Positions 3,843-62,365 of a DNA stretch of 64,000 nt are shown here, piece by piece; the first letter of the stretch is position 1, and the number at the start of each line of letters is the position of its first letter. The notes under the pieces are model-generated. The model saw nothing but the letters and a program-made list of their open reading frames with translations. It was not told the DNA's origin and did no database searches. Made by a program: the position numbers and the translations under genes. This DNA comes from an uncultured Isosphaeraceae bacterium (lineage in GTDB: Bacteria > Planctomycetota > Phycisphaerae > Phycisphaerales > SM1A02). The stretch is from positions 4,450 to 68,449 of the forward strand of contig CAZFZT010000001.1 of the NCBI GenBank assembly GCA_964523675.1, read 5' to 3'.

Positions 3843-4006
3843 TTCACCACAGAGGCACAGACGACACAGAGGAGAGCGGGTTGATTTTGAAACTGATTGG
3901 AGAGGGTGTTGTTCGGGTAGGCGCCAAGGCGAAGCGCGCTTTAATCAATACATCCTGCTCGCTCTCGCTCTCGCTTCCTCTCTGCTCTCTGTGCCTCTGT
4001 GGTGAA
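3843..4006. repeat. Inverted-repeat element with octamer-periodic arms
   Basis: TTCACCACAGAGGCACAGA at 3843-3861 is the perfect reverse complement of 3988-4006. The arms continue as degenerate 8-nt periods (CACAGAGG CACAGACG ... / ...GAGAGCGA). It lies between the kinase stop and the sigma-factor start. Confidence 0.8.
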
Positions 4007-4053
4007 CCCCCGCCGTGAAACTCGGATGAGTCCCCGCCCAATAAGGAATTGCT

Positions 4054-4794
4054 GTGATGAACACGCTCACCACATCCTTCGTCCGCCGACTGCGCAACCG
4101 TGATGAGGCGGCGTGGTTTGAGTTATGGGAGATCTTCGGTCCCGTCATCCGGGCGCAACTTTCCAAATGGGGCAGAGGCCGTATCGGCGTGGAGACCGTG
4201 CGCGATCTGACGCAAGAGACGCTCGCGGCGCTTTCTGACTCGATCGACCGCTACGATCCGAATCGCGGCGCGCGGTTCAGCACGTGGCTCCTCTCCATCG
4301 CCAAGCATGCGCTCGGCGATGAGATGGATCGACGCATGGCCCTCAAGCGCGGCGGTGGAGTGAAGGCGATGGAACTTGACGAGCGCTATATGGGCAAAGC
4401 TGCGGTCGTTGAAGCGGACGAGCACTATCAGCGGAACATCTTCGAGGCGAAGGTGTACGCAGCGATTCGCAAGGCCGAGCAGGAATCGGACTTCGTGCAG
4501 TTCCAGGTGTATCGCATGCGAGTTTTCGATGGCGCAAGCGGCAAGGTATGCGCCGAGCAGCTCGGCATCAGCGAGCCGACCGTAACGCGACATGTGCAGC
4601 GCGTGCGCGAGGTGCTGCGAGCGCGGCTTGCGGAGGTTGTCACGACCTATTCATTCACGGCCGAAGAAGAAACAGAACCGGACAAAGCCGGTCTGTGCGG
4701 GCCTGATCAGATGTTTGATGAAGCCATTTGCGAAATCTACCACAGGCAGTCGAAGCTTGTTCTCGATGATGAATCGATGAGTTCCCAGTTCTAG
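4054..4794 (+). CDS. ECF-type RNA polymerase sigma-70 factor with a C-terminal extension
   Basis: Region 2 (DLTQETLAALSDSIDRYDP..FSTWLLSIAKHALGD) and region 4 HTH (CAEQLGISEPTVTRHVQRVREVLR). About 50 extra C-terminal residues. Confidence 0.85.
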   Translation: MMNTLTTSFVRRLRNRDEAAWFELWEIFGPVIRAQLSKWGRGRIGVETVRDLTQETLAALSDSIDRYDPNRGARFSTWLLSIAKHALGDEMDRRMALKRGGGVKAMELDERYMGKAAVVEADEHYQRNIFEAKVYAAIRKAEQESDFVQFQVYRMRVFDGASGKVCAEQLGISEPTVTRHVQRVREVLRARLAEVVTTYSFTAEEETEPDKAGLCGPDQMFDEAICEIYHRQSKLVLDDESMSSQF

Positions 4795-4932
4795 CCGTTT
4801 GCATGACTGAAGCATTGCGACCCCCACCTTTCGTTCGCCACGTCACGCTCCAATGCGCGTCGCGGCTCAACACGCTGAAGACGCTGGTCGCATGGTGCCA
4901 CCCACGAACCTCGAATTGCTGAGCTCTCCATC

Positions 4933-7137
4933 ATGGCCCTCACGCCTCTTGCCATTCTCCTGTTCATCATCGCCGGGATCGTTTGCTTTGTGCTCTTTAC
5001 GATCTTCGTGATGGTGCCGCTGTTCCGCGGGATCGGTTGGCTGATCGGTTCGTTCTTTACCGGCGTTGCGTGGTTCATTGGCCACATCGCGGAGTGTATC
5101 GGTGGGATGATCGGCGACACCGTGCGCTGTATTGGATCCGCAATCTCGATTGTTCCGCTTTCATTGCTGAGTGTTCTCAATGTGATCATCGGTCGATGGT
5201 CCGCAGCGGGCCACTTTGCCGACTCTGTGAAGCGAGAATGTCATGTTGCCGGCGCCTGTTTGTATCGCGTGCTGCTGCGCAGACCACTCAAACTCTTCTG
5301 GTTGCATGGTCTCCTTGAAGGTGTGGAGCAGCGCGTGCCCGAGGCCATGTCTGCAGCACCTGGACGTGATCGCCCAGCTCGAGGGGTCGGGCAGTTCGAT
5401 GGATATACGATCGTCGGTTCACTTGCAGGCGGCGGCTCCGGCGGCAAGCTTTACATCGCCCGGCCGGATGAACATAAGCGGCGTCGCCTCGTCGGACATC
5501 CGGACGCTGTCGTCATTAAGTCGTTTGCGTTGACGGAGGGATCCTCCCTGCCGCAGATTGTCCGTGAAAGCCGCGCACTTGAAGCGGCGAAGCAGCTCGG
5601 CCACGTGCTGGATCACAACATGGACGAGAGCCGCTTCTACTACGTCATGCCGTACCACCCCGGTGAGCATCTCGGCATCGTTACGCGACAACTCCACGGT
5701 GAAACAGACGGCAAGGGGCTCGGATCGAAACAGTTGTCGCGGGCAGTGGGCTACGTGCGTGACCTCGTTACCACGCTTTCGCATTATCACCTTGGTGGGC
5801 TCTGGCATAAGGATGTCAAACCTGAGAACATCATCGTGCATGATGCGCGGGCGCATCTGGTCGATCTGGGGCTGGTGACTCCGCTCAAGAGCGCGATGAC
5901 GCTTACGACGCACGGCACCGAATACTTTCGTGATCCGGAAATGGTGCGGCAGGCGCTGCGCGGCGTGAAGGTGCACCAGGTCGATGGCGCGAAGTTTGAC
6001 ATCTACGCCGCCGGCGCAGTGCTCTACTTTATGATCGAGAATACGTTCCCCGCGCACGGGGGCCTCAGCCGTTTCTCGCTCAAGTCGCCCGAAGCACTTC
6101 GCTGGATCGTGAGACGCGCGATGGCGGAATACAACCAGCGATATGACTCCGCCGATGTCATGCTCGCCGATCTGCAATACGTGCTGCATGCCGACGACCC
6201 CTTCGCAATCAAACCGGCGCAGTTGCCCTCGATGGGTGGCCGGCCTGTGGAGGTGACTGCTTCGCAGCACCGTGCAGCAGAGGAATCCGCAGTTCATTTC
6301 GCGCAGGGATTTCCGCAGGATGCCGAGCCGCGCGAACATCCACCACGGCAGGCGGAAGCTCATCACGCCCACACCCCGAAGCCGCCGGCACGTCCTCGAC
6401 TTCGAGTCACCAACTGGTGGACGGGTAAATACGCGGTTGATGGTGGTCCAGACGCGCAGCCGCGCTCAGCCGCCGGTTCCGTCCCCGCTGCGGATGTTCG
6501 ACGCACTGCGCGTGAACAGATCGCATCGGCTCGTGCTCGAGCCAGGGAGGTCCGAGCTCGCGCTCAGGCGCATCGCCATCAGGTCGGCATCGAGCGGCAG
6601 CCGACGCCTGCTGTTGTCATGATCGTGCTTGGGTCGATCGCGTTTCTCGGTTTCATCCTTTATGCCGGCTGGCCCCGCAATGGCGCACCGGTGGAAGGGC
6701 TGCTTGATGGCTCGTGGAACGTTACGCGTGAGGTCAAGGTCAGCCGCTCGCAAACATCGATCATTTCGGCGGGCTCGGATGAGGGCGCCATTGCCGCACC
6801 GCCAACCTCACAGCCGTGGCTGCTCATCAACGATCACCCGGCCAAGCACGATCCTCGGGTACAGCAGCAGGTTGCGGAGATCATTCAGCGCTACAAGGAC
6901 GCTGGCTGGCATGTTCGTGAAGAAGAAGCCGCAGCCGAAGCGGACATTCGCCGCTACCTGCCGACGATATCCGAGCAGTTTGCGGCAGGCGACGCTTTGA
7001 TGACGAGCATCGCTCGATGGGACTTTGGCGGCATTCTTTATGTTGATGCAGCGGCTGAACCCGGCGATCTGCCTTCTCATCAACGGCTGCGGGTGCGCGA
7101 ACTGGCTGCCACGGTTGCTGCTGCGAGTCGCGACTGA
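4933..7137 (+). CDS. Membrane-embedded Ser/Thr protein kinase
   Basis: N-terminal hydrophobic helices. Kinase motifs GGGSGGKLY, VVIKSF, HKDVKPENIIV, VDLGLV, GTEYFRDPE. Arg-rich linker, a further TM (VVMIVLGSIAFLGFILYAGW) and a ~130-aa C-terminal domain. Confidence 0.85.
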   Translation: MALTPLAILLFIIAGIVCFVLFTIFVMVPLFRGIGWLIGSFFTGVAWFIGHIAECIGGMIGDTVRCIGSAISIVPLSLLSVLNVIIGRWSAAGHFADSVKRECHVAGACLYRVLLRRPLKLFWLHGLLEGVEQRVPEAMSAAPGRDRPARGVGQFDGYTIVGSLAGGGSGGKLYIARPDEHKRRRLVGHPDAVVIKSFALTEGSSLPQIVRESRALEAAKQLGHVLDHNMDESRFYYVMPYHPGEHLGIVTRQLHGETDGKGLGSKQLSRAVGYVRDLVTTLSHYHLGGLWHKDVKPENIIVHDARAHLVDLGLVTPLKSAMTLTTHGTEYFRDPEMVRQALRGVKVHQVDGAKFDIYAAGAVLYFMIENTFPAHGGLSRFSLKSPEALRWIVRRAMAEYNQRYDSADVMLADLQYVLHADDPFAIKPAQLPSMGGRPVEVTASQHRAAEESAVHFAQGFPQDAEPREHPPRQAEAHHAHTPKPPARPRLRVTNWWTGKYAVDGGPDAQPRSAAGSVPAADVRRTAREQIASARARAREVRARAQAHRHQVGIERQPTPAVVMIVLGSIAFLGFILYAGWPRNGAPVEGLLDGSWNVTREVKVSRSQTSIISAGSDEGAIAAPPTSQPWLLINDHPAKHDPRVQQQVAEIIQRYKDAGWHVREEEAAAEADIRRYLPTISEQFAAGDALMTSIARWDFGGILYVDAAAEPGDLPSHQRLRVRELAATVAAASRD

Positions 7138-7232
7138 ACTGATTCGCAACGTCGATCTCGTGAGGCAACGTCGGCGGAGTTCAGGGGCCGGTTTGCGGCG
7201 GGCGGCCGCGCACAGACGACCTATCATCGCTC

Positions 7233-9349: not shown

Positions 9350-9388
9350 GATCGATCTGGAGATGACGCGGATCGGCCAAGGGCGTCG

Positions 9389-12259: not shown

Positions 12260-12275
12260 CTCTGCCGCAAGTGTA

Positions 12276-31850: not shown

Positions 31851-31995
31851 AGGCACGTAGGCACGAAGGCACATAGGGATGAGCGGACGAGAGGCAGTGT
31901 AATGCAGCGCTGTGCAGTCCCCGCCTGGCGTCCGATGAAAATGCAATCCTCGAAAAGCGTATAAACTGCCGACCAATTCCCTTCGTGCCTCTGTG
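31851..31995. repeat. Octamer arrays forming inverted arms across a divergent intergenic region
   Basis: AGGCACGT AGGCACGA AGGCACAT AGGGATGA at 31851-31882. AGGCACGAAGG (31859-31869) is the perfect complement of 31980-31990. The right arm ends in ...CCTCTGTG, the same CACAGAGGCAC word as at 3847. Confidence 0.7.
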
Positions 31996-34204: not shown

Positions 34205-37200
34205 CTACTGCCTGCCGCGCCCTTGGGTGATGTTGATCGTATCGCGGCGCATGTTCCACACGGCGCGTTGGGCGTGCATTGGGAAGGCCGAACCGGCGGT
34301 GCGGATCGTAATATCGCGATCCGCTGCGGCCACGAGTTGCGCGACGCCGCCGCCGACGTTGTAATCGAACTCGCCGCAGTTGATCGTGCGATGATCGGTG
34401 ACAATCTCGACGGTTCCCGCTGCCCGCACACGTTCGAGTTCCGCAGAGCCGCCGAAGTCAAGATCGCCCCGCCGCGCTTCTTCACTGCCGCGCACGGCCG
34501 TGGCGGCAAGTTCATCGCACATCACTGTCGAAATCTGCTCGTCAAGGTCGCGATGTCGAAGTCGCACATTGCGCGTGGCGATCAAGTCGAAGATGTTGTC
34601 AAGACGTCGTTTGAGTTCGAGTTTTCCGTCCCACGTGAGCATGGTCGAGCCCTTCGCGCCGAATGGCGCGGGGTCATCGCCTGCGCGCACCGGCGCGACA
34701 TCATGGATGAGCAGGTGGCCGTCACCGACAACAAGCGCTTCACCGGTCAGCGCGTGGTACTCCACATGATGGCCTGCCACGTAGAAAATGCGCGGCTCCG
34801 CATCGGCGTCGCGCGCTTCGATACTGTCCCATGATTGCGACTCAATCTTCGCATCCTGCCGCGCAACGAGCATCGCCAACTGCCGCTGCCTGCCACCCAC
34901 GATCGGCTGAGCATCACCCAACAACCGCACGTGCTCCTTGCGGCCCTCTGATTCTTCGTCTTTCCTTCGCTCCTCCGCCCCTTCGCCCCTTCGCCCCTCT
35001 CCTATCACAAACGCAAACTCCAACGTCAGCGCATCACCGGTCATCGTATTGTGTTCAGTTGGAGAAGGGTCGGACATGACCGACACATCGCCGCGAAGAT
35101 CGATCGATCCTGCGCCGTCATTGGCTTGATTGTGAAAGAGCATCTCGCGCAGCCAGCGGGCGCGGACTTCCATCGGGTTCTTCTCATCATCGATCGCCGG
35201 GCGCTCAACGCGTGATGGCCGCTCATCAGGATTGACCTCGCGCTGTGGCATGATCTGATTCTGAAATAGCCGGAACTGGCCGGCTCCGGGCACACTCGCC
35301 ACACCCTTCCTGCGATCGAGCGTGATGCGACGGGCTTGATCGATGATCATGCGATCGCTCACGACCGCGACGCTGCCGATGTCGGGCGAAGTGAGTTCGA
35401 TGGTTTCACTGACACCGTTACCTGAGAGGCGGTCTGCGAAAACGCGCGTGCCGTCCGCAAGGATGACCTGCACATTTCGCTCGGCGATGAAGTCTTCGAC
35501 ATCCGCGCCCCGGCCGCGCAGAAGCCCGCCCATCCCTTCATCCTCTGCTTCTGCGTCATCCAGCGCGGCCGTCGATTCACGGAAACTCACGCGCAGGGCG
35601 TCGGCCCAAATCGTCTGCTCCTCATCGAAAGCCAGCACGTCGCCTGTGGCGACGAGCATTTTCGGAATGGTCTTTCCCGCTGTTGTCTGTTGAAGATTCA
35701 ATTGCAAATCGGCGCATCGAATGGCGGAGCGTTCGAGCATTCCGGTGACGTTGACATCGCCGGTGGCGTGGACCGATTCAATGGCATCAGACCCACCCTG
35801 TTCTGCGAAGGCGACAGCCATCTGATCAGCGGTCATATTGAATTCGGGGCTGGTGATGTTGACCGCGCCTTTGAAATGTGCATTTGAAATGCGGTCGCCT
35901 TCATCGTCGAATTGCAGATCAACGCCTCCCTCCCAGGTGATGTGCAGTTCAGGTTCCTCTCGCGGCTCTGGCGGCGCCTCACGACGTGCAACGCGCTGAG
36001 GCAGCGGATCGTCAGCAGCACACGCCAACGCAAACCACTCCTGATCAGCACGATCGCGGCGACTCATCCAACCATCGCCGTCGAATCCACCTTCTGCGTC
36101 CAGCTGCGCGAGATAGAAGCGCTCGCCGCCTGCTTCCATTTCAGGCGTGTTCACGCGCAGCGGATGGCCGGGCGAACCAACGAGTTCGATCACTCCGCGA
36201 TCGGTTTGGTAGACGAGCGTTCTGCCGAGCGCCTGTGATTGCTTGCCGAAATCACACAATTGAACCGGCCGGCCAGTGAGTTCCAATCGGGCGTCTTCCG
36301 CTCGAGCCAGAGCGCGGGAAGAATCACGCAGCGGCTGGATCGTGAGCGGGCCGCCTGCGCGGACGAGCGTGATGTTTTCACCGAGGAGCGACTCGATGCC
36401 GCCGGCACGCGGTTGAGTCACTGGGGAGAGTGAGCCGAGCGTCATCGCCGTGAGGGCTGCGCGAAGGTTGAATGATCGTCTGGCGGCGGGGCTGGGGGCG
36501 GCCGATGAGTGCGCGAGCGCAGAGGTGATTGACGGGGGCAGGAACGCAAGCGGGGAATCAAGCGATTCGGATTTTGAGGTAAAGATCAGTTCGAGGCGGT
36601 CACCAGATGCGGTGCGGCGGGCGGCACGCGTGCCTTCATCGATCCGAACGTTGTCCTGTAACGTCAAGAGGTAGAAGCGCGAATCGGCAGCGTCAGCGCT
36701 GTGAGAGCCCCCTGAAGACGGCTCGGAACGCGACGCAGCCAGCGAAGCTGTGCGCGAATAAAACCCTTGTGCCGAACGTGCTGAAGAGTACGACCGGGTC
36801 GATCGCTCTCGATCTTCACGTACGAAGCGGATGTACTCGACCTTGGCGAGGGTAATGCGAACTTCATCGTGTTGATCGTCGATCAGAATACTCAGCCGAT
36901 CACCGGGCATGGTGAAATTGGGCCCTTCGATGAGGACGCCGCCGCCTGCGCTAATCTCGCCGAGGAAGTTCTCGAATGACGCCTCGGCTGTATGCATGGT
37001 CATTGCCGGTTCATCGTGTTCCGGGTCGATGGGCTGACCGGGTTCATAGTCAAAGACCCTGACCACGACGTTTCCGGTTACGGTCCCTTGCTCGACAGCC
37101 CGCTGCGGGGCGTACGTGAAGGCGGTATCTCCGGCGATGGAAATGATGCGATCGTCGGAGAAGATTTCCATGCGCGGCTGAGTCATCTCCAGCCATCCAG

Positions 37201-37570
37201 GCCCCATGCCGTCCGGCGCTGGATCAAGTGCCTCGCAGCGGTATCGCTGTGCCGGTGTGCCATCGCTGTTGTGCGTTTGGATCCAGCCACGCTGAGCGCG
37301 AAGCGGCTGCATTCGGTCACCGGCTTGAGCGAGGTCAGCGTCGGTCAACGGGCTGGGCGGCGCGATGAGCTCGATGATCTGCTCATCAGTGAGGTGCTTG
37401 CTGCCGCGCGGCTCCTGATCGATATTCAATATGACAATGAGCAGCAGCGCTGCGACGATGCCGCCGCAAGTGAGAATCAGAAGTGGCTTGCTCGGGCCAG
37501 TGCGAACGGGGGGAGGTGCGCCGTCGTCGAGAAGCTGTCTACGCGGTGTGTCCATGTCGATTCTCACCAA
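34205..37570 (-). CDS. Giant (1121 aa) membrane-anchored protein built of repeated OstA/LptA-LptC-like beta-jellyroll modules
   Basis: Single N-terminal TM (PLLILTCGGIVAALLLIVILNI). There are at least 8 recurrences of the LptA/LptC-type pattern (e.g. ISIAGDTAFTY...GTVTGNVVV, VHATGDVNVTG, AERNVQVILADGTRVFADRL, LRGDVSVMS...MTGDALTLEF, VRAAGTVEIVTDHRTINCGEFDY). It sits directly downstream of kdsC, as lptC-lptA do in E. coli. Confidence 0.6.
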   Translation of the reverse strand: MVRIDMDTPRRQLLDDGAPPPVRTGPSKPLLILTCGGIVAALLLIVILNIDQEPRGSKHLTDEQIIELIAPPSPLTDADLAQAGDRMQPLRAQRGWIQTHNSDGTPAQRYRCEALDPAPDGMGPGWLEMTQPRMEIFSDDRIISIAGDTAFTYAPQRAVEQGTVTGNVVVRVFDYEPGQPIDPEHDEPAMTMHTAEASFENFLGEISAGGGVLIEGPNFTMPGDRLSILIDDQHDEVRITLAKVEYIRFVREDRERSTRSYSSARSAQGFYSRTASLAASRSEPSSGGSHSADAADSRFYLLTLQDNVRIDEGTRAARRTASGDRLELIFTSKSESLDSPLAFLPPSITSALAHSSAAPSPAARRSFNLRAALTAMTLGSLSPVTQPRAGGIESLLGENITLVRAGGPLTIQPLRDSSRALARAEDARLELTGRPVQLCDFGKQSQALGRTLVYQTDRGVIELVGSPGHPLRVNTPEMEAGGERFYLAQLDAEGGFDGDGWMSRRDRADQEWFALACAADDPLPQRVARREAPPEPREEPELHITWEGGVDLQFDDEGDRISNAHFKGAVNITSPEFNMTADQMAVAFAEQGGSDAIESVHATGDVNVTGMLERSAIRCADLQLNLQQTTAGKTIPKMLVATGDVLAFDEEQTIWADALRVSFRESTAALDDAEAEDEGMGGLLRGRGADVEDFIAERNVQVILADGTRVFADRLSGNGVSETIELTSPDIGSVAVVSDRMIIDQARRITLDRRKGVASVPGAGQFRLFQNQIMPQREVNPDERPSRVERPAIDDEKNPMEVRARWLREMLFHNQANDGAGSIDLRGDVSVMSDPSPTEHNTMTGDALTLEFAFVIGEGRRGEGAEERRKDEESEGRKEHVRLLGDAQPIVGGRQRQLAMLVARQDAKIESQSWDSIEARDADAEPRIFYVAGHHVEYHALTGEALVVGDGHLLIHDVAPVRAGDDPAPFGAKGSTMLTWDGKLELKRRLDNIFDLIATRNVRLRHRDLDEQISTVMCDELAATAVRGSEEARRGDLDFGGSAELERVRAAGTVEIVTDHRTINCGEFDYNVGGGVAQLVAAADRDITIRTAGSAFPMHAQRAVWNMRRDTINITQGRGRQ
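34953..35000. repeat. Octamer tandem array inside the giant Lpt-like CDS
   Basis: ...CGCTCCTC CGCCCCTT CGCCCCTT CGCCCCTC on the plus strand, which reads GAGGGGCG AAGGGGCG AAGGGGCG on the coding strand. It encodes the low-complexity GEGRRGEGAEERRKDEESEGRKE. Confidence 0.7.
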
Positions 37571-38190: not shown

Positions 38191-38195
38191 CGGGA

Positions 38196-38341
38196 GGAGC
38201 TAGGAGCTAGGGATTCGAGATGAGGCGTTCAGGATATACACTATCCGGAACACATCGAGAGCAAGAAGGCGAGCAGCCGTCTCTCTCGGCGACCTAACTT
38301 AACTCCTAACTCCTAACTCCTGGCTCCTAACGCCTAACTCC
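38196..38341. repeat. Heptamer arrays forming imperfect inverted arms
   Basis: Left arm GGAGCTA GGAGCTA GGGATTC GAGATGA GGCGTTC (38196-38230). Right arm CCTAACT TAACTCC TAACTCC TAACTCC TGGCTCC TAACGCC TAACTCC (38293-38341). Read on opposite strands, both are GGAG[C/T]TA arrays. Confidence 0.8.
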
Positions 38342-39066
38342 ATCGCAACGGCGAGTCGATCGCTTGCGATGGAGATTGCCCCATCGTTGATATCGATGCC
38401 GATGTACCGCCGGGCCAGGTGCGCCGCTGCGACGAGCGTGGTGCCGCTGCCGCAGAAGGGATCGAGCACGAGTCCGCCGGGCGGGCAGCAGGCGCTGATG
38501 AGCAGTTCGAGCAGTGCAACTGGCTTCTGTGTTGGGTAGCCGCAACGCTCGCTTGCCATGTTATTGAGCGACGGAACATCGATGACGTCCGTCGCCTTCT
38601 TCATCATGCCCTTCATGCGTGCGCTTTGGGCGGGAACCATTGGCGGCTTGAACCAGTAGTCATCGGTCTTCGAGTAGAACAGGATGTCGTCATGCTTGCG
38701 CGCGAATCGACGTGGCGATGAACCGCCCAGGCCGTAGCGCCAGATGAGGTGGTTCACGAACTGTTCCGGGCCGAAGATCTCATCAAGCATTCGGCGAAGG
38801 TGATGGCAAGTGCGCCAATCGCAATGCAGGAGAATCGAGCCGGTGGGGGAGAGTACGCGATGAACCTGGCGAAGACGCGGCTCCATCATGTGGAGGTGTC
38901 CCTCCACGCCGTCCCATGAATCGGCATACGATCCGTTGCGGCCGGCCATGGTCCGCCCCGTATTGAAGGGCGGATCAAGATAGGCAAGATCAACGCATTG
39001 GTCGGGCACGCGCGATAGCGCATCAAGACAATCGCTGCACATGATCTGGTCGAGAAGTTGCTGCAC
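38299..39066 (-). CDS. Beta-class DNA methyltransferase (N6-adenine or N4-cytosine), orphan
   Basis: DPPF catalytic motif (LAYLDPPFNTG) placed before the SAM-binding motif (VLDPFCGSGTT), plus TQKP. No nuclease gene is adjacent. The last 14 aa (ELGVRSQELGVRS) are encoded by the heptamer array. Confidence 0.85.
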   Translation of the reverse strand: MQQLLDQIMCSDCLDALSRVPDQCVDLAYLDPPFNTGRTMAGRNGSYADSWDGVEGHLHMMEPRLRQVHRVLSPTGSILLHCDWRTCHHLRRMLDEIFGPEQFVNHLIWRYGLGGSSPRRFARKHDDILFYSKTDDYWFKPPMVPAQSARMKGMMKKATDVIDVPSLNNMASERCGYPTQKPVALLELLISACCPPGGLVLDPFCGSGTTLVAAAHLARRYIGIDINDGAISIASDRLAVAMELGVRSQELGVRS

Positions 39067-53335: not shown

Positions 53336-55161
53336 GCGGGCGCGGCCCACGATCTTCTGATTCACGTGGTCTCTTTGCGCGGGCAGCACACACGCCGATG
53401 CGCGATTTCGCCCGCCTGCGCATCACCGGCCGGCTTGACATTGCGCAGATGATCGAAGAAGCCGAACTTCCCGCTTCGCTCGGCTCGATTGTGATGCAAG
53501 TTGTTCGGCGGACGCGGCTCTGGCGCATTGAGAGAGCCGATGTCGCGCGGGAATTGATTGCCCACTTTGCCGACGGTCTTGAAGCCGGCGCTTCGGCCGA
53601 GCAACTCGTGCGTGACTTCGGCGATACGCAGCAAGCCGCTGTGCTCATTCGACGCGCGAAGAAACGCAACCGTCCCGCATGGTGGAACACGGCCCGTTAT
53701 GGCATGTACGGCTTCGGCTTCCTGCTGCTCACATACGCCGCGTTGGTCGCTTACTTTGTGCTCGATCGGCCGCAGGTCATGCATGACTATGTTGCCGACA
53801 TCAACGCGGTAGCGGCATCAGCAACCCCTGAGGAACGCGGCTGGCCGTTGTATCGGGAGGGGCTGCTTGCACTTGAGCCGGTGCCTGAAGAATTGCAAGA
53901 TCACTGGCCGCATCCGCCGGAAGAATTGTGGCCGATTGCAGCAGAGTATCTGGAACGCAACAGTGAATCGCTCGACCTCTTTCGCCGGGCTGCAAGAAGG
54001 CCTGCGATGGGGCTGACCATCGGTTGTGAGGTCGCGCCGGAGGATCAGCCGCTCTGGCCTGACATGAAGTCGGACTGTGGCAGTGACGGCCTCATTGCAG
54101 TCATCATGCCCCACGTCGCAAAGATGCGCGAAATCGCCCGGTTGTTGGAGGTGGACAATAAACGGGCGGCGATGGATGGCGATGCTGAGATCGTGTACGC
54201 GAACCTCGTCACCATGTTGCGCCTTCCGACGCATCTCAAGGAGCATCCAGTGCTCATCTGCGACCTGGTGGCCTTCGCTGTGCTTGATCTGGCACTCAAG
54301 GTGATCGGCGAGCAGTTGCGCGACAACCCGCAGTTGTTTACGGACGATGCACTTGTGGCACTCGCACATGAGATCAGCAGCGCGGCAGGCGAAAGAACGT
54401 TGCGCATGCAGTTTGAAGGCGAACGTATGTTCTTCGCCGACTGGCTTCAGCGCAACTTCACCGATGATGGCGAGGGCGGCGGGAAATTGTCGCCGCACGG
54501 TCTGCGGAGTCTGGCGATGCTGGATTCGGGGTATTTCGATCTCGCCGACACTGAAATGCCGCTGAGCACGTACCTCGCAGCGCCTGTCGCTGGCTTCATC
54601 GTGGGCAACCGCCGTGACCAAATGGCGAAGTACGATGCGTTCTATGCAATGTTGGTCGAGGAAGCAGCAAAGCCGCTTTGGCAGCGGACCTATGCCGACT
54701 CCCCGGACCAGCGCGTTCAAGAGCTCGAGATGTCGATGATCCTGCGACTGCGATACTTGCCCATCGTTGTGCTGATGCCGGCCCTGTCGAATGCAAGCAT
54801 AAAGCCGCATCAGGTCGCACAGCATCGCGACGGGATTCTGACGGCGATTGCGCTGGAGTTGTATCGGCGGCGGCATGGCAAGTGGCCAACGTCACTTGAC
54901 GATCTGACGCCGCAATACCTGCCGCAGGTTCCGATTGATCGCTTCGACGGGAAACCGCTTCGTTATGTCGTTCGCGAAGGGCGGCCGATTCTCTACTCCA
55001 TCGGCACGAATCACAAAGATGATGGCGGGGTTGCGGCACTCGACCAGAATGACGTACCGCAACCGACCGCAGCATCACGATGGATGTCGGCCGAATCCGC
55101 CGTAGTGCGCGGTTCATCGGTGCCGCAAGGCGATTGGATTCTTTGGTCTCGCGAGAGGTAG
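53332..55161 (+). CDS. PadR-coupled membrane protein (609 aa) with a large extracytoplasmic domain
   Basis: 4-nt overlap with padR. N-terminal cytoplasmic helical region, one TM (YGMYGFGFLLLTYAALVAYFVL), long C-terminal domain ending in a pseudopilin-like ...ILYSIGTNHKDDGG. Confidence 0.6.
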   Translation: MSGRGPRSSDSRGLFARAAHTPMRDFARLRITGRLDIAQMIEEAELPASLGSIVMQVVRRTRLWRIERADVARELIAHFADGLEAGASAEQLVRDFGDTQQAAVLIRRAKKRNRPAWWNTARYGMYGFGFLLLTYAALVAYFVLDRPQVMHDYVADINAVAASATPEERGWPLYREGLLALEPVPEELQDHWPHPPEELWPIAAEYLERNSESLDLFRRAARRPAMGLTIGCEVAPEDQPLWPDMKSDCGSDGLIAVIMPHVAKMREIARLLEVDNKRAAMDGDAEIVYANLVTMLRLPTHLKEHPVLICDLVAFAVLDLALKVIGEQLRDNPQLFTDDALVALAHEISSAAGERTLRMQFEGERMFFADWLQRNFTDDGEGGGKLSPHGLRSLAMLDSGYFDLADTEMPLSTYLAAPVAGFIVGNRRDQMAKYDAFYAMLVEEAAKPLWQRTYADSPDQRVQELEMSMILRLRYLPIVVLMPALSNASIKPHQVAQHRDGILTAIALELYRRRHGKWPTSLDDLTPQYLPQVPIDRFDGKPLRYVVREGRPILYSIGTNHKDDGGVAALDQNDVPQPTAASRWMSAESAVVRGSSVPQGDWILWSRER

Positions 55162-55242
55162 GCGAAGGGGCAGAGGGGCGAGGGATGCCTTGCCTACAGC
55201 CGGCCTACAGCCGGCCAACAGCCAACAGCCAACAGCCAACAG
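55161..55242. repeat. Composite short tandem repeats upstream of guaB
   Basis: GGCGAAGG GGCAGAGG GGCGAGGG (8-nt period, 55161-55184). CCTACAGCCGG x2 (55193-55214). CCAACAG x4 (55215-55242). Confidence 0.85.
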
Positions 55243-55265
55243 CCCGCCGACTTACCGTTTGAGTC

Positions 55266-56889
<1,624 letters not shown>

Positions 56890-56968
56890 ATTGCTAGCAG
56901 CTAGTCCACAGGTCCATAGATCCTCGAAACCATACCGTTGATCTGGCAACCTGCAGTAGTCGGCCCTG

Positions 56969-56989: not shown

Positions 56990-57112
56990 GTGTTTGAAAC
57001 ATCCACATCTCTTCATTGCCGGATTAGACTTCCACGGCAGCTCAAACTGCAAGCACGTCGTTGAAGGCCGGCTATAATGCCCGCTTCGCATTAATCAGCA
57101 GGAAGCCTTTCT

Positions 57113-57670: not shown

Positions 57671-57733
57671 TGCGTCCGAGAGGATGGCGGCTTGGATGTG
57701 GAGTGCGATTCGACCTCATCGCTCAAACGAGAA

Positions 57734-57758
57734 GCCCACGGCCGGGAAGACCGTGGGC
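57734..57758. terminator. Hairpin terminator between efp and the convergent tRNA-Ala
   Basis: GCCCACGG-CCGGGAAGA-CCGTGGGC followed by CTTATTCTT on the plus strand. It could serve both converging transcripts. Confidence 0.6.
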
Positions 57759-57789
57759 CTTATTCTTCAAGGCGCGGATGCCGTGATAG

Positions 57790-57862
57790 TGGAGCAGATG
57801 AGACTCGAACTCACAACCTCCTCGATGCGACCGAGGCGCTCTCCCAATTGAGCTACTGCCCC
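57790..57862 (-). tRNA. tRNA-Ala (anticodon CGC)
   Basis: The reverse complement GGGGCAGTAGCTCAATTGGGAGAGCGCCTCGGTCGCATCGAGGAGGTTGTGAGTTCGAGTCTCATCTGCTCCA folds as a cloverleaf with a G3:U70 pair. Confidence 0.95.
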
Positions 57863-58070
57863 TGAGCCAGGCCCGTGGGGGCTGGCGGGGAACCAGATCA
57901 TATCGTCTCTGCAACCGCTCATCCAGTGCCGGTCATTCAGTATGCCCCGTTCAGCTTGATCGGCCGGCGAGCCCGCTTCGGCTGGCGACCCCGAAACCCA
58001 TCGCATCGCCGCAGTAGTCGCCTCTCTGCTACACTGTCCGTCCAATTACCTAGTCAGAAGGATTCCATCC

Positions 58071-59183: not shown

Positions 59184-59401
59184 CGGACTTCGAGGATGAC
59201 GCCCACTTGTGGTGACCCCAATGAAGGCACCAGGCCGAGGCGTGAGCGAGCATGACGTTCGTCTCGCTCGCGCGCGGAGATCGCGTGGCTGCCGTGGGCT
59301 GGAGTCTTTGCGAGTCGCTCAAGCAAGTTCGGAAAGAAGCGCGCGATCCGCCGCTCTGATCGGCTCGTATGAACTGGTCGCATCGATGGATTGGGCCGAT
59401 C

Positions 59402-60751
59402 ATGAGCACCATGCCCGCTTCAACTTCTTCCTCACCCGCCGACGAACTGCGCACGCGCATAGAGAGCAAGACTGCGCTCATCGCCGTCGTTGGCCTGGGC
59501 TATGTGGGTCTGCCGCTGGTGCGCGCGGTGCATGAGGCGGGCTACCGCGTGCTCGGCTACGACATCGACCCGGCGAAGATCCAGCGGTTGCGACGAGGCG
59601 AAACGTACCTCAAGCATCTTGGCGATGATCTTGCGCAGGCGCTCGCAGCTTCAGATCGCTTTGAAGCCACGGATGAATCATCGCGACTCGCTGAAGCCGA
59701 TGTCATCATCCTGTGCGTGCCGACTCCGCTGGGCGAACACCGCGAACCGGACCTGAGTTATGTTCTGAACTCGACGCGCATGGTGGCGCGCACGCTGCGC
59801 AACGGGCAACTCGTCGTGCTGGAGTCGACAACCTATCCCGGCACGACGCGCAGCGAGATGCTGCCGATTCTGAGTGAGTCAAACCTCACCTTCGGCAGCG
59901 ATTTCTTTCTGGCGTATTCGCCTGAACGCGAAGATCCCGGCCGAAAGGATGCCACGACGCGCACCGTTGCCAAGCTCGTCGGCGGCGTCGATGAGCCGTC
60001 AACCGATCTTGCGATGACGCTCTACTCGCAAGTGGTGGATCATGCGCACCGTGTGTCGTCGGCCGAGGTCGCAGAGGCGGCGAAACTGCTCGAGAACGTC
60101 TTCCGCGCGGTCAACATCGCGCTGGTGAACGAACTCAAGATGCTCCTCGACGCAATGGGCATCGACGTGTGGGAAGTGATTGCTGCGGCTTCGACCAAGC
60201 CGTTCGGCTTCATGCCGTTTCACCCGGGGCCGGGCCTTGGCGGACACTGCATCCCCATTGATCCCTTCTATCTGGCGTGGAAGGCGAAGGAAGTAGGTCA
60301 GCCGACGAAATTCATTGAGCTTGCCGGCGAAATCAACTCGCTCATGCCGGGGTATGTCATTTCTCGAATCGCAGCTGCCCTCAACGAGGAGCAGAAATCG
60401 ATCAAGGGTTCGAAGATTCTCATCATTGGCATCGCGTACAAGCCGGATGTTGACGACATTCGCGAGAGCCCCGCAGCGGTGATCATCGAGTTGCTGCGCG
60501 ATGCAGGCGGGGAGGTGTCGTACCATGATCCGCACATTCCGCAGTTTCCATCGATGCGCAAACACGAAATTGACCTGCGCTCGGTGCCGCTGGACGAGAA
60601 GACGCTTGCGCAGCAGGACTGTGTGGTGATCGTAACGAACCATTCAACGGTGGATTACATGCTGATCGGCCGATCGGCAACATTGATCGTGGACACCCGC
60701 AATGTGATGGCGGCGGTGGGCAACACTGCCGCCCGCATTGTGAAGGCCTAG
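59402..60751 (+). CDS. Nucleotide-sugar dehydrogenase (UDP-N-acetyl-hexosamine 6-dehydrogenase family, WecC/WbpA/TviB-like)
   Basis: VVGLGYVGLPL Rossmann motif, VLESTTYPGTT, catalytic GGHCIPIDP, C-terminal UDP-binding domain (GIAYKPDVDDIRESP). Confidence 0.85.
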   Translation: MSTMPASTSSSPADELRTRIESKTALIAVVGLGYVGLPLVRAVHEAGYRVLGYDIDPAKIQRLRRGETYLKHLGDDLAQALAASDRFEATDESSRLAEADVIILCVPTPLGEHREPDLSYVLNSTRMVARTLRNGQLVVLESTTYPGTTRSEMLPILSESNLTFGSDFFLAYSPEREDPGRKDATTRTVAKLVGGVDEPSTDLAMTLYSQVVDHAHRVSSAEVAEAAKLLENVFRAVNIALVNELKMLLDAMGIDVWEVIAAASTKPFGFMPFHPGPGLGGHCIPIDPFYLAWKAKEVGQPTKFIELAGEINSLMPGYVISRIAAALNEEQKSIKGSKILIIGIAYKPDVDDIRESPAAVIIELLRDAGGEVSYHDPHIPQFPSMRKHEIDLRSVPLDEKTLAQQDCVVIVTNHSTVDYMLIGRSATLIVDTRNVMAAVGNTAARIVKA

Positions 60752-60754
60752 CCA

Positions 60755-60839
60755 CATAGCCCCGGCCTTGGCCGGGGGATCGGCATTGCTAAGCGGTGCG
60801 TGCCAATTGTTCGATCACCCCGGCCAAGGCCGGGGCTAT
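60755..60839. repeat. Two inverted copies of a GC-rich palindromic unit (REP-like); probable bidirectional terminators
   Basis: ATAGCCCCGGCC-TT-GGCCGGGG (hairpin 60760-60777) and CCCCGGCC-AA-GGCCGGGGCTAT (hairpin 60818-60835). They lie between two convergent stop codons. Confidence 0.75.
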
Positions 60840-60844
60840 ATGAG

Positions 60845-62365
60845 TTAGCCGCCGCCTGCGCCAGAGGCACCCGGTTCGGTCATTGCGCGTGCATCCAGCA
60901 GCGCATCGAGGCGTTTGGGCTCGATGAGTTTGTGCTCCAGCACATACTCGCGCACGGTCTGACCGGTTTTGAACGCGCTCTTGGCGACCTCCGCCGCCTT
61001 GTCGTAGCCGATCTCCGGCGCGAGACTCGTGCACATCATCAGCGACTTCTCAACCATTCCCGTCGCGATGTCTTTGTTGACTTCCAAACCGTCGAGGCAC
61101 TTGTCCACGAACATCTGCGATGCGTTTGCGAGCAGAGTGATCGACTCGATCAGGTTGTCAGCCATCATCGGCATGGCGACGTTGAGATCGAGCAGCGACC
61201 CGACACCGCCCATGCCGCCCATGGTGATCGCTGCATCATTGCCGACGACCTGACACGCCACCTGCATGAGTGATTCGCAGATGACGGGGTTCACCTTGCC
61301 GGGCATGATCGACGAGCCGGGCTGCATCGCAGGCAAGGACAACTCGAACAACCCGCAGCGCGGCCCCGAACCGAGCAGGCGAATGTCGCTTGCGATCTTC
61401 GAAAGCGCGACAGCAATGGTTTTCAAATGGCCGCTTGCTTCGACGACGCAGTCGCGCGTCGCCTGCGCTTCGAAATGATTCGGCGCTTCCTTGAAGTCGA
61501 CTTTCGTTCGCTGCTTCAAGCGCTTCGCGACCATCGAGCCGAATTTCGGATGGGTATTGATGCCGGTGCCGACGGCCGTGCCGCCGATGGGCAAATTCTC
61601 CGCCAGCCGTTGCATGGCGCGCTCGGCCCGCAGCACCGAGTACTCCGCCGCAGCTGCGTACCCGGAGAACTCCTGGCCAAGACGTATCGGCGTCGCATCC
61701 ATCAGATGTGTGCGGCCAATCTTGACGATCGAATCCCACTTTCTCGCCTTCGAGGCAAGGGCCTTCTGCAGATTCTTCAATGCAGGAATGAGTTGCTCAT
61801 TGATCGCAATTGCTGCGGCAACCTGCATGGCTGTCGGAAACGTGTCGTTCGACGACTGTCCCATGTTGACGTGGTCATTCGGATGAACGACATCTCTGGA
61901 GCCAATGGCCTTTCCGGAGTACCTGGCAACGAGGTTGGCGACGACCTCGTTGACGTTCATGTTCGTGGATGTACCCGAGCCGGTCTGGAAGATGTCGATG
62001 GGGAAGTGCTCCATCATGGCAGAGGCATCCTGGGATCGAGTCGTTGAGGCATTGGGTGCCTCGCCGGCCCTTTGTCCTGATGCCTTGCTGCCTTGATGCC
62101 TCGTGCCCTTCGCAACCTCATCACACGCCTTCACGATCAACTTCGCGCGCTTCTGATCGAGCTTCTTCAACTGCAGGTTCGTCTCAGCGCACGCGCCTTT
62201 GAGCAGTGCGAACGCATGAATCACCTCCGGCGGCACCGGCCTTCCCGAAACCGGAAAGTTCAGCACCGCGCGCTGCGTCGTCGCGCCGTAGAGGACGTGT
62301 GAGGGAACGGTCATTTCACCCATTGAATCGCGCTCGATGCGCGTTTTTGCAGAAGTCTTTGCCAT
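60845..62365 (-). CDS. fumC: Class II fumarate hydratase
   Basis: ERDSMGEMTVP, FPIDIFQTGSGTSTNMNVNEV, VHPNDHVN.GQSSND.FPTA, signature GSSIMPGKVNP. Contains a ~28-aa insertion relative to E. coli FumC. Confidence 0.85.
   Translation of the reverse strand: MAKTSAKTRIERDSMGEMTVPSHVLYGATTQRAVLNFPVSGRPVPPEVIHAFALLKGACAETNLQLKKLDQKRAKLIVKACDEVAKGTRHQGSKASGQRAGEAPNASTTRSQDASAMMEHFPIDIFQTGSGTSTNMNVNEVVANLVARYSGKAIGSRDVVHPNDHVNMGQSSNDTFPTAMQVAAAIAINEQLIPALKNLQKALASKARKWDSIVKIGRTHLMDATPIRLGQEFSGYAAAAEYSVLRAERAMQRLAENLPIGGTAVGTGINTHPKFGSMVAKRLKQRTKVDFKEAPNHFEAQATRDCVVEASGHLKTIAVALSKIASDIRLLGSGPRCGLFELSLPAMQPGSSIMPGKVNPVICESLMQVACQVVGNDAAITMGGMGGVGSLLDLNVAMPMMADNLIESITLLANASQMFVDKCLDGLEVNKDIATGMVEKSLMMCTSLAPEIGYDKAAEVAKSAFKTGQTVREYVLEHKLIEPKRLDALLDARAMTEPGASGAGGG
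62022..62107. repeat. Octamer-periodic imperfect palindrome inside fumC
   Basis: GAGGCATC CTGGGATC GAGTCGTT GAGGCATT GGG... / CCTGATGC CTTGCTGC CTTGATGC CTCGTGCC. GAGGCATC (62022-62029) pairs perfectly with GATGCCTC (62095-62102). Inner hairpin GAGGCA-TTGGG-TGCCTC at 62046-62062. Confidence 0.7.

Follow-up and report, generated by a model that had tools for sequence, protein, structure and literature searches.

Short-period tandem-array hairpins in a Planctomycetota genome fragment: probable gene-less members of a widespread element class

Results

Seven loci in a 64-kb window carry tandem arrays of 7- or 8-nt units

The window, which is the whole 64-kb stretch of DNA analysed here, from a Phycisphaerae-like planctomycete, contains three tRNAs and no rRNA according to an Rfam search, and period-7/8 tandem arrays lie at seven places in it, designated elements A to F and H (Table 1). 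Element A is intergenic, with a Ser/Thr kinase gene (2508-3830, +) on one side and an ECF sigma gene (4054-4794, +) on the other, as assigned by Pfam. Element B lies between a divergent UbiD-like gene (likely start 31843, -) and an ABC ATPase gene (32001, +). Element C is in frame within a 1121-aa ORF (34205-37570, -), where it encodes ...GEGRRGEGAEERRKDEESEG.... The left arm of element D is located 5-21 nt upstream of the start of a HAD-hydrolase gene (38190, -; Pfam), and its right arm forms the end of the coding sequence of a DNA methylase (38299-39066, -), with the final 14 residues (MELGVRSQELGVRS) and the stop codon; the Pfam domain of this protein ends at residue 234 of 255. Element E is intergenic and upstream of the IMP dehydrogenase (IMPDH) gene (55285-56889, +), and elements F and H lie within the IMPDH and fumarase C genes, respectively. 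Most copies are found between co-directional genes or close to starts or stops.

Table 1 Array elements of the window and their Tandem Repeats Finder (TRF) arrays.
Element	Position	Strand	Composition	TRF arrays
A	3842..4007	.	arms 3842-3873 and 3976-4007, CACAGAGG/AGGCACAG-type octamers, 102-nt loop	3848-3871 and 3977-4001
B	31851..31995	.	left array AGGCACGT/AGGCACGA/AGGCACAT, 31851-31880	31851-31877, period 8, 3.4 copies
C	34953..35000	-	single (GGGGCGAA)-type array on the sense strand, 4.4 copies	34964-34998, score 56
D	38195..38341	.	left arm AGGAGCT x2.4, 38195-38211; right arm TAACTCC x6, 38300-38341	38195-38211 and 38300-38341
E	55161..55244	+	G-rich octamers 55161-55184; GCCTACAGCCG x2.9, 55192-55223; GCCAACA x4.4, 55214-55244	55161-55184 and 55214-55244; also 11-mer at 55192-55223
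F	55761..55839	+	(GGGATYRA) octamer hairpin, arms 55761-55792 and 55805-55836, GTCGAC centre	55761-55793 and 55805-55839
H	62012..62107	-	decayed (AGGCATCA)-type octamer hairpin, in frame in fumarase C (60845-62365, -)	62078-62107

The initial annotation had named eight loci, and Tandem Repeats Finder detected period-7/8 arrays at seven of them, with 2.4-6.0 copies per array, a period of 8 in 8 of 11 arrays (7 only at 38195, 38300 and 55214) and at least six unit types within the 64 kb. The eighth locus, 56893-56930, displayed neither TRF periodicity nor a hairpin (fold z +0.5) and is thus not a family member. As a chance control, the window was dinucleotide-shuffled 40 times. Arrays of period 7, 8, 14 or 16 numbered 15 in the window and 4.85 on average in the shuffles (maximum 11), and those scoring at least 40 numbered 9 versus 0.55 (maximum 2). 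In addition, the 11-mer CACAGAGGCAC, a recurring word already pointed out before, was confirmed at three sites (3848, +; 3991, -; 31985, -) against an expectation of 0.05. These results show that the window arrays are real and far above chance; the enrichment over shuffled sequence and the proposal of one family with a shared architecture, present both between genes and in frame within conserved genes, were upheld. Several two-copy TRF rows (e.g. 17058, 39516 and 41653) were at shuffle level.

Facing arms are present at five loci

Partner-arm alignment and folding identified complementary facing arms at elements A, B, D, F and H, and the partner scores exceeded those of every shuffled array at three loci (baseline of 145 shuffled arrays: mean 13.8, 95th percentile 18, maximum 23). 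Element A has 32-nt arms with 88% complementarity, partner scores of 33/35 and a DNA fold of -39.7 kcal/mol (z -4.77), and the 32-nt arms of element F are 81% complementary (scores 34/34, fold z -4.86). Elements D (score 24/24, fold z -3.08) and H (score 23 at 62022-62102, fold z -3.06) followed. Element B has a short right arm (CCCTTCGTGCCTCTGTG at 31978-31995), a loop of ~100 nt and 16-18-nt arms of 78-88% complementarity (score 22, fold z -1.2). No complementary arm was found within 700 nt of element C (score 18), and the adjacent arrays of element E are non-complementary, with no hairpin (z -0.29) and no partner arm (score 12). The claim of inverted arms holds for only five of the eight loci, 34953-35000 and 55161-55244 being unpaired and 56893-56930 a non-member.

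The mismatches between the arms of element D are C-A on the plus strand and hence G-U on the transcribed minus strand, which hints at a constraint at the RNA level at this locus. A G-quadruplex-forming repeat would call for four or more runs of at least 3 G in one array; three to four runs of G3-G4 occur in elements C, E and F, and GG runs only in A, B, D and H. The arm starts (GTTCACC, AGGCAC, GGAGCT and GGGAT) have no head in common. Elements A, F and H lack a visible target-site duplication, a conserved end was likewise not seen, and the loops share nothing with one another or with about 220 fetched loci. Three candidate identities were rejected, the first two in agreement with the initial annotation. 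The units are contiguous and 7-8 nt long, as against the 24-48-nt repeats with unique spacers of similar length of a CRISPR array; a classical REP/BIME is contradicted by the lack of a common GTAG/CGTC head on the arms and of any transposase hit among the 18 window ORFs scanned by Pfam, the latter also as stated before; and no terminator-like site in the window overlaps any array, which argues against intrinsic terminators. No Rfam family matched the hairpins.

Two hairpins lie in frame within housekeeping enzymes

Four copies had been placed inside ORFs. Three are internal (in the 1121-aa ORF, IMPDH and fumarase) and a further one forms the C-terminal tail of the methylase (38300-38341), while 31851-31995, although within a long ORF, is intergenic: the Pfam domain of the UbiD-like protein begins at residue 63 and a Met is present at residue 54, so this element lies upstream of the likely start.

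Element F is a 72-nt in-frame insertion that adds 24 residues between the two CBS domains of IMPDH. It is missing in 17 genome relatives and also in the nearest relative, P0002, the sister of the window. Of 120 relatives, 70 have a linker of 10 residues; the window linker has 34. Some insert occupies the same linker in ~20 of the 120 relatives, in at least 10 separate clades, and these inserts, present in about one sixth of the relatives, have unrelated sequences. Two of the other inserts translate as octamer arrays, namely (AGGCACGA)n in P0006, confirmed at the DNA level (L081, 10505-10538), and (GAAGCGAC)n in P0022. The AAGGACC immediately left of the window insert resembles the unit AAGGGACC.

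Element H corresponds to residues ~89-118 of fumarase C (TRHQGSKASGQRAGEAPNASTTRSQDASA), which has ~28 residues inserted relative to solved fumarases. The fumarase gene of L214 carries a sequence-similar hairpin at the same site that is much better paired (GGCATCAA x4.5 / CTCGATGC x3.9; fold -51 versus -32 kcal/mol in the window). Across this one orthologous pair, on which the test for compensatory change rests, 20 stem pairs were unchanged, 3 were kept by a one-sided change, 0 were compensatory and 9 were broken. These data show that at least one window copy is decaying and that its pairing is not maintained. In L216 the fumarase loop is in its ancestral state and includes GAGGCAGATGC, from which AGGCATC/GATGCCT could have been seeded. 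The IMPDH and fumarase C hairpins are lineage-specific in-frame insertions; the sites include permissive surface loops of both enzymes, and the inserts there are simply translated.

The same class is found in metagenomes and other phyla

Matches to AGGCACGAAGGCACGNAGGCACG placed the AGGCACGA octamer array, the unit of which is that of element B, in at least 120 metagenome contigs. It mostly forms facing pairs of the purine-first kind, and the contigs with AGGCACGA range in GC content from 0.46 to 0.72 and include Bacteroidales MAGs. We scanned 706 kb, made up of the AGGCACGAAGGCACGNAGGCACG-matching metagenome contigs, the window, L081 and L083, and found 66 facing pairs with a median loop of 48 nt. 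Among the 65 oriented pairs, 58 were purine-first and 7 pyrimidine-first (p = 4e-11), and the histogram of repeat periods in the same 706 kb peaked at 7 and 8. In 40 hairpins with at least two transition mismatches, the mismatches were all of one kind in 21, versus 15.6 expected.

Seven period-7/8 arrays were present in the 21.6 kb of L081, a Phycisphaerales-like contig of GC 0.61, and facing heptamer arrays were also found in other Planctomycetota and in Acidobacteriota loci. Period 8 is found in the high-GC relatives (Gemmatirosa, L081) too, and period 7 in cyanobacteria. Between L081 and L082, which come from two samples, the arrays were identical, with no length change, while a 20-nt-period repeat did change; the arrays are therefore not hypervariable on that scale. 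In one metagenome subfamily (L093, L151 and L155) the arms are nearly identical and the loops related.

PF05635 genes are bracketed by such arrays

The PF05635/TIGR02436 protein, "S23p", is a four-helix bundle known as the 23S rRNA intervening-sequence (IVS) protein and related to Avd; in Xanthomonas it forms a toroidal homopentamer. The family is not known to have catalytic activity or a recombinase fold. A long loop often encodes such a "23S rRNA IVS protein", as in L081, L130, L131/L163 and L029, and in L081 the arrays flanking the gene (TGAGGGGG) are unlike every other array in the contig. For the converse test, plasmids were searched by tblastn with a PF05635 protein and 14 genes were fetched. 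Each of the 14 was flanked on either side by period-7/8 arrays, which were complementary to one another in 11-12 cases; on the same plasmids, arrays bracketed 1 of 80 other genes. One flank consisted of a 14-nt double-heptamer unit x20 and another of a heptamer x15.6. These results show that a PF05635 gene nearly always has such arrays on either side. In Xanthomonas, GGGAATC repeat #15 overlaps the start of XCC0516 (PMC4692102, supplement), which is a PF05635 protein (PMC10053308). A jackhmmer search over all window ORFs found no PF05635 ORF, and the link of the window copies to this cassette thus rests on the architecture and the shared AGGCACGA unit.

Discussion

The window loci are probably members, without a gene of their own, of a widespread class of hairpin elements built from short-period tandem arrays, an assignment that we favour with some reserve, and the copies can be read as gene-less, decaying IVS-like elements. 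Such an element consists of a purine-rich array in which a 7- or 8-nt unit is repeated ~3-6 times, a variable loop and a complementary array; in the long form, seen in other bacteria, the loop is a PF05635/TIGR02436 gene, and the window copies would stand to the PF05635 cassette as short to long rRNA intervening sequences. We infer selfish or near-neutral insertional DNA rather than host regulatory devices, in which array copy number would shift by slippage. In transcripts, the arms may pair into a long stem open to cutting by RNase III, by analogy with the Coxiella IVS, the one case in which this is demonstrated. New copies could arise either when a pre-formed element moves, perhaps helped by the PF05635 protein or an enzyme of the host, or by growth in place. 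Unconserved loops, the lack of a target-site duplication and the lack of a conserved end mean that there is no direct sign of transposition, and a single mobile element does not explain the many unit types in one genome. The distinct arrays beside the PF05635 gene of L081, the identity of the arrays between L081 and L082 and the hint of constraint on RNA at element D also weigh against the element reading.

Growth in place throughout is a possible, though not a likely, alternative to the element reading. Replication slippage, favouring steps of 7-8 nt, would expand a short local seed, intramolecular template switching would copy the expansion to the other arm of a small palindrome that was already there, and the by-products would be tolerated where harmless. 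Nearly every locus has its own unit, and the same permissive loops were hit repeatedly with different units each time, as this model would have it. The AAGGACC beside the IMPDH insert resembles its unit, the GAGGCAGATGC in the L216 loop could be a seed, copy number varies widely (the x20 and x15.6 flanks; 2-3 heptamers among Coxiella strains), and Mrazek has proposed a polymerase footprint as the source of the excess of heptamer repeats (cited in PMC4692102). However, random seeds would not yield one octamer, AGGCACGA, in at least 120 contigs spanning GC 0.46-0.72, and neither the 58:7 purine-first bias nor the almost invariable presence of arrays around a single gene family (14/14 versus 1/80) would be expected. 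The absence of any array length change between L081 and L082, where the 20-nt-period repeat did change, also speaks against it.

Selection by the host is less probable still. The arrays would then be RNA stems acting in processing, mRNA stabilisation or translational control, arrays bound by a periodic nucleic-acid-binding protein, or G-quadruplex/i-motif switches. The location of most copies between co-directional genes or near starts and stops is consistent with this, as are the G-U mismatches of element D and the one-kind transition mismatches in 21 of 40 hairpins. About four units per array and a G-run in most units fit the G4 argument and the in-vitro G4 results of Rehm et al. (PMC4692102), and Xanthomonas repeats are usually retained in the same gene context between two species (PMC4692102). 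On the other hand, the only orthologous pair has 0 compensatory and 9 broken pairs, AGGCAC-type units hold GG runs only, two housekeeping enzymes have hairpins within their coding sequence, and a divergent promoter region holds another. The unrelated inserts at the IMPDH linker in ~1/6 of relatives, and the lack of any terminator-like site at an array or Rfam match, likewise count against host selection.

Ordinary MITEs, that is, IS deletion derivatives moved in trans whose terminal inverted repeats are periodic by chance, are very unlikely. A 12-110-nt core between terminal inverted arms 16-32 nt long, dispersed copies and the L093, L151 and L155 subfamily with its nearly identical arms and related loops resemble MITEs, but A, F and H show no target-site duplication, the window loops are unrelated to each other or to other fetched loci, the arms vary from copy to copy, the window ORFs examined by Pfam included no evident transposase, and the long form carries PF05635, which is not known to have a recombinase fold. 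That the arrays arose by chance or from composition, in a genome rich in GC and with coding stretches of low complexity, as suggested by the shuffle-level two-copy rows, is already refuted for seven loci by the high-scoring arrays (9 versus 0.55), the partner scores above all shuffles at three loci, the 11-mer common to three sites and the same units in independent contigs, and stands for 56893-56930 only.

A bolder form of the element reading, which we regard as doubtful, is that the S23p pentamer recognises the tandem 7-8-nt units around its own gene, about one unit per subunit, and that gene and arrays form a self-propagating, REPtron-like module with the gene-less hairpins as non-autonomous progeny. 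Such binding would account for the preference for 4-5 units in an array. If it is true, the progeny would comprise thousands of gene-less heptamer or octamer hairpins, among them cyanobacterial STRRs, Xanthomonas GGGAATC pairs, rRNA intervening sequences and the in-frame inserts of the window, and STRR repeats, IVS elements and the TIGR02436 family, all long-standing orphans, would come under a single account.

The view that the repeats could not be placed in any named family was too strong, since they fit the class of 7-nt long SSRs or STRRs as well as the ends of the Coxiella IVS. The cyanobacterial STRR heptamers were reportedly described by Mazel et al. in 1990. The GGGAATC and GGGGA(C/T)T arrays of Xanthomonas and Nostoc are head-to-tail, genome-dispersed short units with ~4 copies preferred (Rehm et al. 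2015, PMC4692102); there are 70-75 convergent array pairs per Xanthomonas genome, and the heptamer arrays, of which the function is not known, lie mostly near gene ends and are under-represented in ORFs (PMC4692102). Few-copy, head-to-tail tandem units and convergent facing pairs (5 of 7 window loci) are common to this class and the window, and the window IMPDH unit GGGATCAA resembles GGGAATC. The match to a described family, which the initial annotation had named as a ground for refutation, is partial: the unit is 7 nt in this class and mostly 8 in the window; one unit dominates per genome, whereas the window has at least six types in 64 kb; and the class is over-represented in non-coding DNA, whereas three or four of the seven window copies are in coding sequence, two of them, unlike in the published descriptions, as insertions in conserved enzymes. 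Those descriptions also concern other phyla and draw no link to PF05635.

The 23S IVS of Coxiella burnetii carries an S23p ORF and a 28-bp terminal stem (Warrier et al. 2016, PMC4990558). Its 5' terminal repeat consists of tandem GACAGAT heptamers, 2-3 depending on the strain, RNase III cuts within the stem, and the IVS has been described as a selfish element; S23p-carrying IVSs are also reported for Leptospira and Brucella (PMC4990558). Long-stem inverted ends around a variable interior and terminal repeats made of tandem short units are shared with the window, and a PF05635 ORF between similar arms is shared with L029, L081, L130, L131 and the 14 plasmid loci. The Coxiella IVS lies in rRNA and holds an ORF, whereas the window copies are outside rRNA and ORF-less. 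In contrast to an rRNA IVS, an insert in a protein-coding gene is not removable without destroying the message and is therefore translated.

REP/BIME sequences with their RAYT (REPtrons) resemble the PF05635 cassette in having a small gene between inverted repeats that also occur as solo copies. GTAG/CGTC-tagged REP classes have been described by Di Nocera et al. (2013, PMC3733652). REPs are single 20-40-bp palindromes that share a conserved GTAG/CGTC head and lack internal periodicity, whereas the window arms have no conserved tetranucleotide head; RAYT is an HUH transposase and PF05635 a four-helix bundle. Rickettsia palindromic elements, reportedly described by Ogata et al. in 2000, are, like the window inserts, palindromic selfish DNA that sits in frame within conserved genes and is translated into additional surface segments; unlike them, they have a conserved 100-150-bp consensus and no short-period arms and are confined to Rickettsia. 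The kind of element matches ones already known (STRRs, Xanthomonas arrays and Coxiella IVS ends), and what is new is the AGGCACGA octamer in at least 120 contigs, PF05635 in the long loops and the bracketing of plasmid PF05635 genes.

Short-period arrays in the window

The window has a G+C content of 60% and a gene content typical of Planctomycetota. Among the matches listed from genomes of Phycisphaerales and other Planctomycetota, none exceeds 70% identity to its IMPDH (55285-56889), whose nearest neighbor in a large protein collection shares 75-79% identity. The window IMPDH and fumarase appear in this collection as P0001 and P0154. Statements on the host genome refer to these 64 kb of sequence.

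The initial annotation described at least eight loci of tandem 7-8-nt units, most with complementary facing arms, both intergenic and in frame. The observation was real, though only partly as described. Of the eight loci named, seven gave Tandem Repeats Finder arrays with a period of 7 or 8; 56893-56930 was dropped because it has neither periodicity nor a fold. Arrays of period 7, 8, 14 or 16 numbered 15 in the window, compared with a mean of 4.85 in 40 dinucleotide-preserving shuffles of it, and the enrichment was stronger for arrays with a score of at least 40 (9 versus 0.55, with a maximum of 2 in any shuffle). One word that recurs between loci, CACAGAGGCAC, occurs three times in the window against 0.05 expected. 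Facing arms were quantified by searching up to 200 nt from each array for the segment that complements it best, with 145 arrays born in the shuffles as the baseline (mean 13.8, 95th percentile 18, maximum 23). Five loci have facing arms, whereas elements C and E and the discarded 56893-56930 do not. Seven loci of the window are genuine copies of a repeat class, five of them facing-arm hairpins.

Position and arm statistics of the seven array elements in the window
Element	Extent	Gene position	Interval analyzed	Arms (length, complementarity)	Fold z	Partner-arm score
A	3842-4007	Ser/Thr kinase on one side, ECF sigma gene on the other	3842-4007	32 nt, 88%	-4.8	33/35
B	31851-31995	between divergent UbiD-like gene and ABC ATPase	31854-31995	16-18 nt	-1.2	22
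C	34953-35000	internal to 1121-residue ORF	34953-35000			18
D	38195-38341	minus-strand DNA methylase/HAD hydrolase interval; right array codes for the C-terminal 14 residues of the methylase	38195-38341		-3.1	24/24
E	55161-55244	IMPDH upstream region	55161-55244			12
F	55761-55839	within IMPDH	55761-55839	32 nt, 81%	-4.9	34/34
H	62012-62107	within fumarase C	62022-62102		-3.1	23

Where element A begins on the left, 16 nt (3837-3852, AGCGTGTTCACCACAG) are 94% complementary to 4052-4067, which spans the ECF sigma start codon; the match may reflect pairing over a distance or may be fortuitous.

Arrays of the same class in relatives and other phyla

The array class also occurs in relatives and in other phyla, and one unit is very widely shared. 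The related contig L081 carries AAAGTCC/GGACTTT in the accB-accC gap, TGAGGGGG/TCACCCCC, CTAATCC and AGCTTTC arrays, plus an array in its IMPDH gene. Heptamer arrays facing each other were also found in other Planctomycetota (L021 and L029) and in Acidobacteriota (L037, L048, L065 and L078). A single scan detected AGGCACGAAGGCACGNAGGCACG in at least 120 metagenome contigs, with a GC content of 0.46-0.72 among the matches listed, and about one quarter of the first 80 of these contigs have a complementary array 60-500 nt downstream.

We then combined the AGGCACGAAGGCACGNAGGCACG-selected contigs with the window, L081 and L083 into a 706-kb set. Arrays of period 7 (108) and period 8 (239, about 170 of them the selected unit) far outnumbered those of period 6 (10) and period 10 (27). 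The purine-rich arm came first in 58 of 66 facing pairs and the pyrimidine-rich arm in 7 (p = 4e-11), with a median loop of 48 nt. Arms were conserved between copies and loops were not. As a probe for RNA-level selection, the wobble asymmetry of the hairpins amounted to 21 consistent cases versus 15.6 expected. A search with RHEGTKAR, the in-frame reading of (AGGCACGA)n, matched only spurious ORFs of 32-66 aa and gave no list of host proteins carrying the array in frame; the AGGCACGA unit is mainly intergenic and also occurs in Bacteroidales MAGs.

None of the 7-8-nt arrays changed between two samples of one contig (L081 and L082). Their 13 kb differ at a single place, near L081 13025, by one 20-nt unit in another kind of tandem repeat (CCCGTGGCGCGGGAGACTCT), whose period is about 20 nt and which is apparently more labile than the 7-8-nt arrays. 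Three elements (L093 7183-7408, L151 4136-4481 and L155 1480-1969) have near-identical CACGAAGG arms and related interiors of 200-490 nt, whose translations have common motifs such as ..SANGA..YQPGA.PQ... They gave no match in Rfam and look like a MITE-like subfamily inside the array class.

Arrays bracket PF05635 genes

Long loops often bear a gene, which belongs to PF05635/TIGR02436 between the arms TGAGGGGG in L081, AGGCACGA in L130, GGAGGGAC in L131/L163 and AGGCAGT in L029. The family is annotated as "23S rRNA intervening sequence protein", and its members are four-helix bundles related to Avd of diversity-generating retroelements. The converse test was blind to repeats: one PF05635 protein was searched by tblastn against 72,556 plasmids, which returned 22 records; most were from Nostoc, Calothrix and related genera, with Gemmatirosa making up nearly all of the rest. 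Arrays lay at both ends of all 14 PF05635 genes from 14 of these records, at distances of a few to about 120 nt, with period 7, except in GC-rich Gemmatirosa, where it is 8. The arrays at the two ends were mutually complementary in 11-12 of the 14. The control comprised 80 further annotated genes, from 100 kb of sequence on two of these plasmids, and one of them had arrays on both sides. PF05635 genes are almost always bracketed by arrays.

The plasmid genes sit between nrdB and nrdA, between cas6 and cas4 (twice), and beside transposases and an integrase, which is the behavior of a small inserted cassette. These data show that the long form of the array architecture is a PF05635 cassette. The two cas6-cas4 genes are on plasmids of distant cyanobacteria, Anabaena sp. 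90 (L209) and Pseudanabaena (L211), and their units differ (TGACAGG and AAAAGCT).

The main rival explanation is that arrays grow in place by slippage and template switching. Growth in place accounts for the diversity of units, but it leaves the shared unit, the polarity and the gene association unaccounted for; random local slippage alone is hard to reconcile with a specific, widespread unit with fixed polarity.

Related repeats have been described before. In Xanthomonas, GGGAATC heptamer arrays form 70-75 convergent inverted pairs per genome, with four units preferred, and Rehm et al. found no function for them; Nostoc has GGGGA(C/T)T arrays, and the paper refers to earlier work in which heptamers were the over-represented long repeat of many bacteria (PMC4692102). 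Repeat #15 (GGGAATC) of Xanthomonas campestris overlaps the start codon of XCC0516, beside accB (supplement of PMC4692102), and XCC0516 is a crystallized PF05635 protein that forms a homopentamer (PMC10053308). The planctomycete accB-accC spacer of L081 has its AAAGTCC/GGACTTT hairpin at 3149-3237; together with the Xanthomonas XCC0516-XCC0517 locus, this raises the possibility that elements land in the spacer recurrently. The Coxiella 23S IVS contains an S23p ORF and a 28-bp terminal stem; at its 5' end lie GACAGAT heptamers in tandem, three or four depending on the strain, and RNase III cleaves within the stem, at the first repeat (PMC4990558). Beggiatoaceae carry TAACTGA direct repeats, as described by MacGregor (PMC4679880). 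In the literature covered, which was incomplete, we found no published statement of a general rule of array-bracketed PF05635 genes across phyla.

In-frame inserts in IMPDH and fumarase

Element F adds exactly 72 nt, or 24 residues, to the linker joining the CBS domains of IMPDH and is missing from 17 genome relatives. Of 120 relatives, 70 have a linker of 10 residues and about 20 have one of 15-39. In a neighbor-joining tree built with the linker left out, long linkers were spread over at least 10 separate clades, and the sister of the window protein (P0002) has the short form. The insert of P0006, ARHEGTKARRHEAG, is a recognizable translation of an octamer array, and its DNA (L081 10505-10538) reads (AGGCACGA) x4.2, the same unit as in element B. 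The insert of P0022, KSDEATKRRSD, is a translated (GAAGCGAC)n octamer array. This one permissive loop thus took up, or grew, different arrays on repeated occasions.

Within 55266-55300, a promoter-like TTGACA-16-GATAAT (11/12 matches) ends 7 nt before the ATG at 55300, which is the start in the database protein (P0001, 529 aa). The IMPDH mRNA may therefore be leaderless. The start of the 534-aa ORF at 55285 is probably wrong.

The window fumarase (60845-62365) has about 28 residues more than solved fumarase structures, and the fumarase of L214 (P0156) has an insert with identical boundaries and length. Both carry a AGGCATCA-type hairpin at this one site, and that of L214 is much better (GGCATCAA x4.5 facing CTCGATGC x3.9; -51 versus -32 kcal/mol in the window). 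The two sequences differ at 19 of 86 positions in the insert and at 8 of 58 in the flanks. The L214 fold has 32 pairs; the window shares 20 of them without change, preserves 3 through substitution on one side and has lost 9, with no compensatory change. Because pairs were broken and none was compensated, the window hairpin is decaying and is not structurally maintained.

This comparison and the coding locations count against the reading of the hairpins as selected structures, which is weakened; the G-U pairs on the transcribed strand of element D keep it alive for some copies. With the insert removed, the window fumarase is closest to P0155 (88%) and P0156 to P0161 (90%). Both of these neighbors are without the insert, and the two carriers are only 80% alike. 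No block of raised identity indicating a recombination tract was found around the insert. The comparison covered the window, L214, L215 and L216, and the presence of the insert in the window and L214 might stem from two losses, from lateral recombination or from renewed insertion at this one site.

Intrinsic terminators were ruled out by a scan of the window, in which no terminator-like site overlaps any array, and reading of the sequences ruled out CRISPR, REP and MITE identities, the first two as initially annotated. Rfam at gathering thresholds returned tRNAs alone in the window, with no array match, and had no match in eight array-bearing contigs.

A repeat of a kind unlike the arrays lies at 60753-60842, where the genes for UDP-glucose dehydrogenase and fumarase converge. 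Its two 25-nt arms (CACATAGCCCCGGCCTTGGCCGGGG and the complement) match each other at 96% complementarity, and each arm is a palindrome in its own right; the repeat may be a bidirectional terminator or resemble a REP.

Interpretation and relation to known repeats

We infer that the window copies are related to the PF05635 cassette but lack its gene, and that they are selfish or neutral. Such elements would survive at permissive sites only, which would account for the reuse of certain protein loops and of the accB-accC and cas6-cas4 spacers. The unit number in their arrays would shift by slippage, and transcribed array stems would be sensitive to RNase III.

The main value of these results is that they connect the PF05635 family with rRNA intervening sequences and with hairpins built of short-period repeats. 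Arrays also stand alone as hairpins, which can land in frame in housekeeping enzymes across Phycisphaerales. The connection makes it possible to ask whether the pentamer binds its flanking units, whether RNase III cuts the stems and whether new copies appear. The elements give rise to spurious small ORFs, such as those for RHEGTKAR-type peptides, give conserved proteins lineage-specific low-complexity loops, and cause assembly and annotation trouble in high-GC metagenome bins.

The initial annotation could not place the arrays, but they belong to a known, if unexplained, kind. To our knowledge, neither origin nor function has been assigned to the cyanobacterial STRRs and the Xanthomonas heptamers, catalogued for 35 years, and the 23S rRNA IVS and the very common TIGR02436/PF05635 "four helix bundle protein" family are equally unexplained. 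Compared with the known short-period repeats, the window copies differ in their octamer period, their occurrence in Planctomycetota, the many units in a single genome and their presence as in-frame inserts in enzymes.
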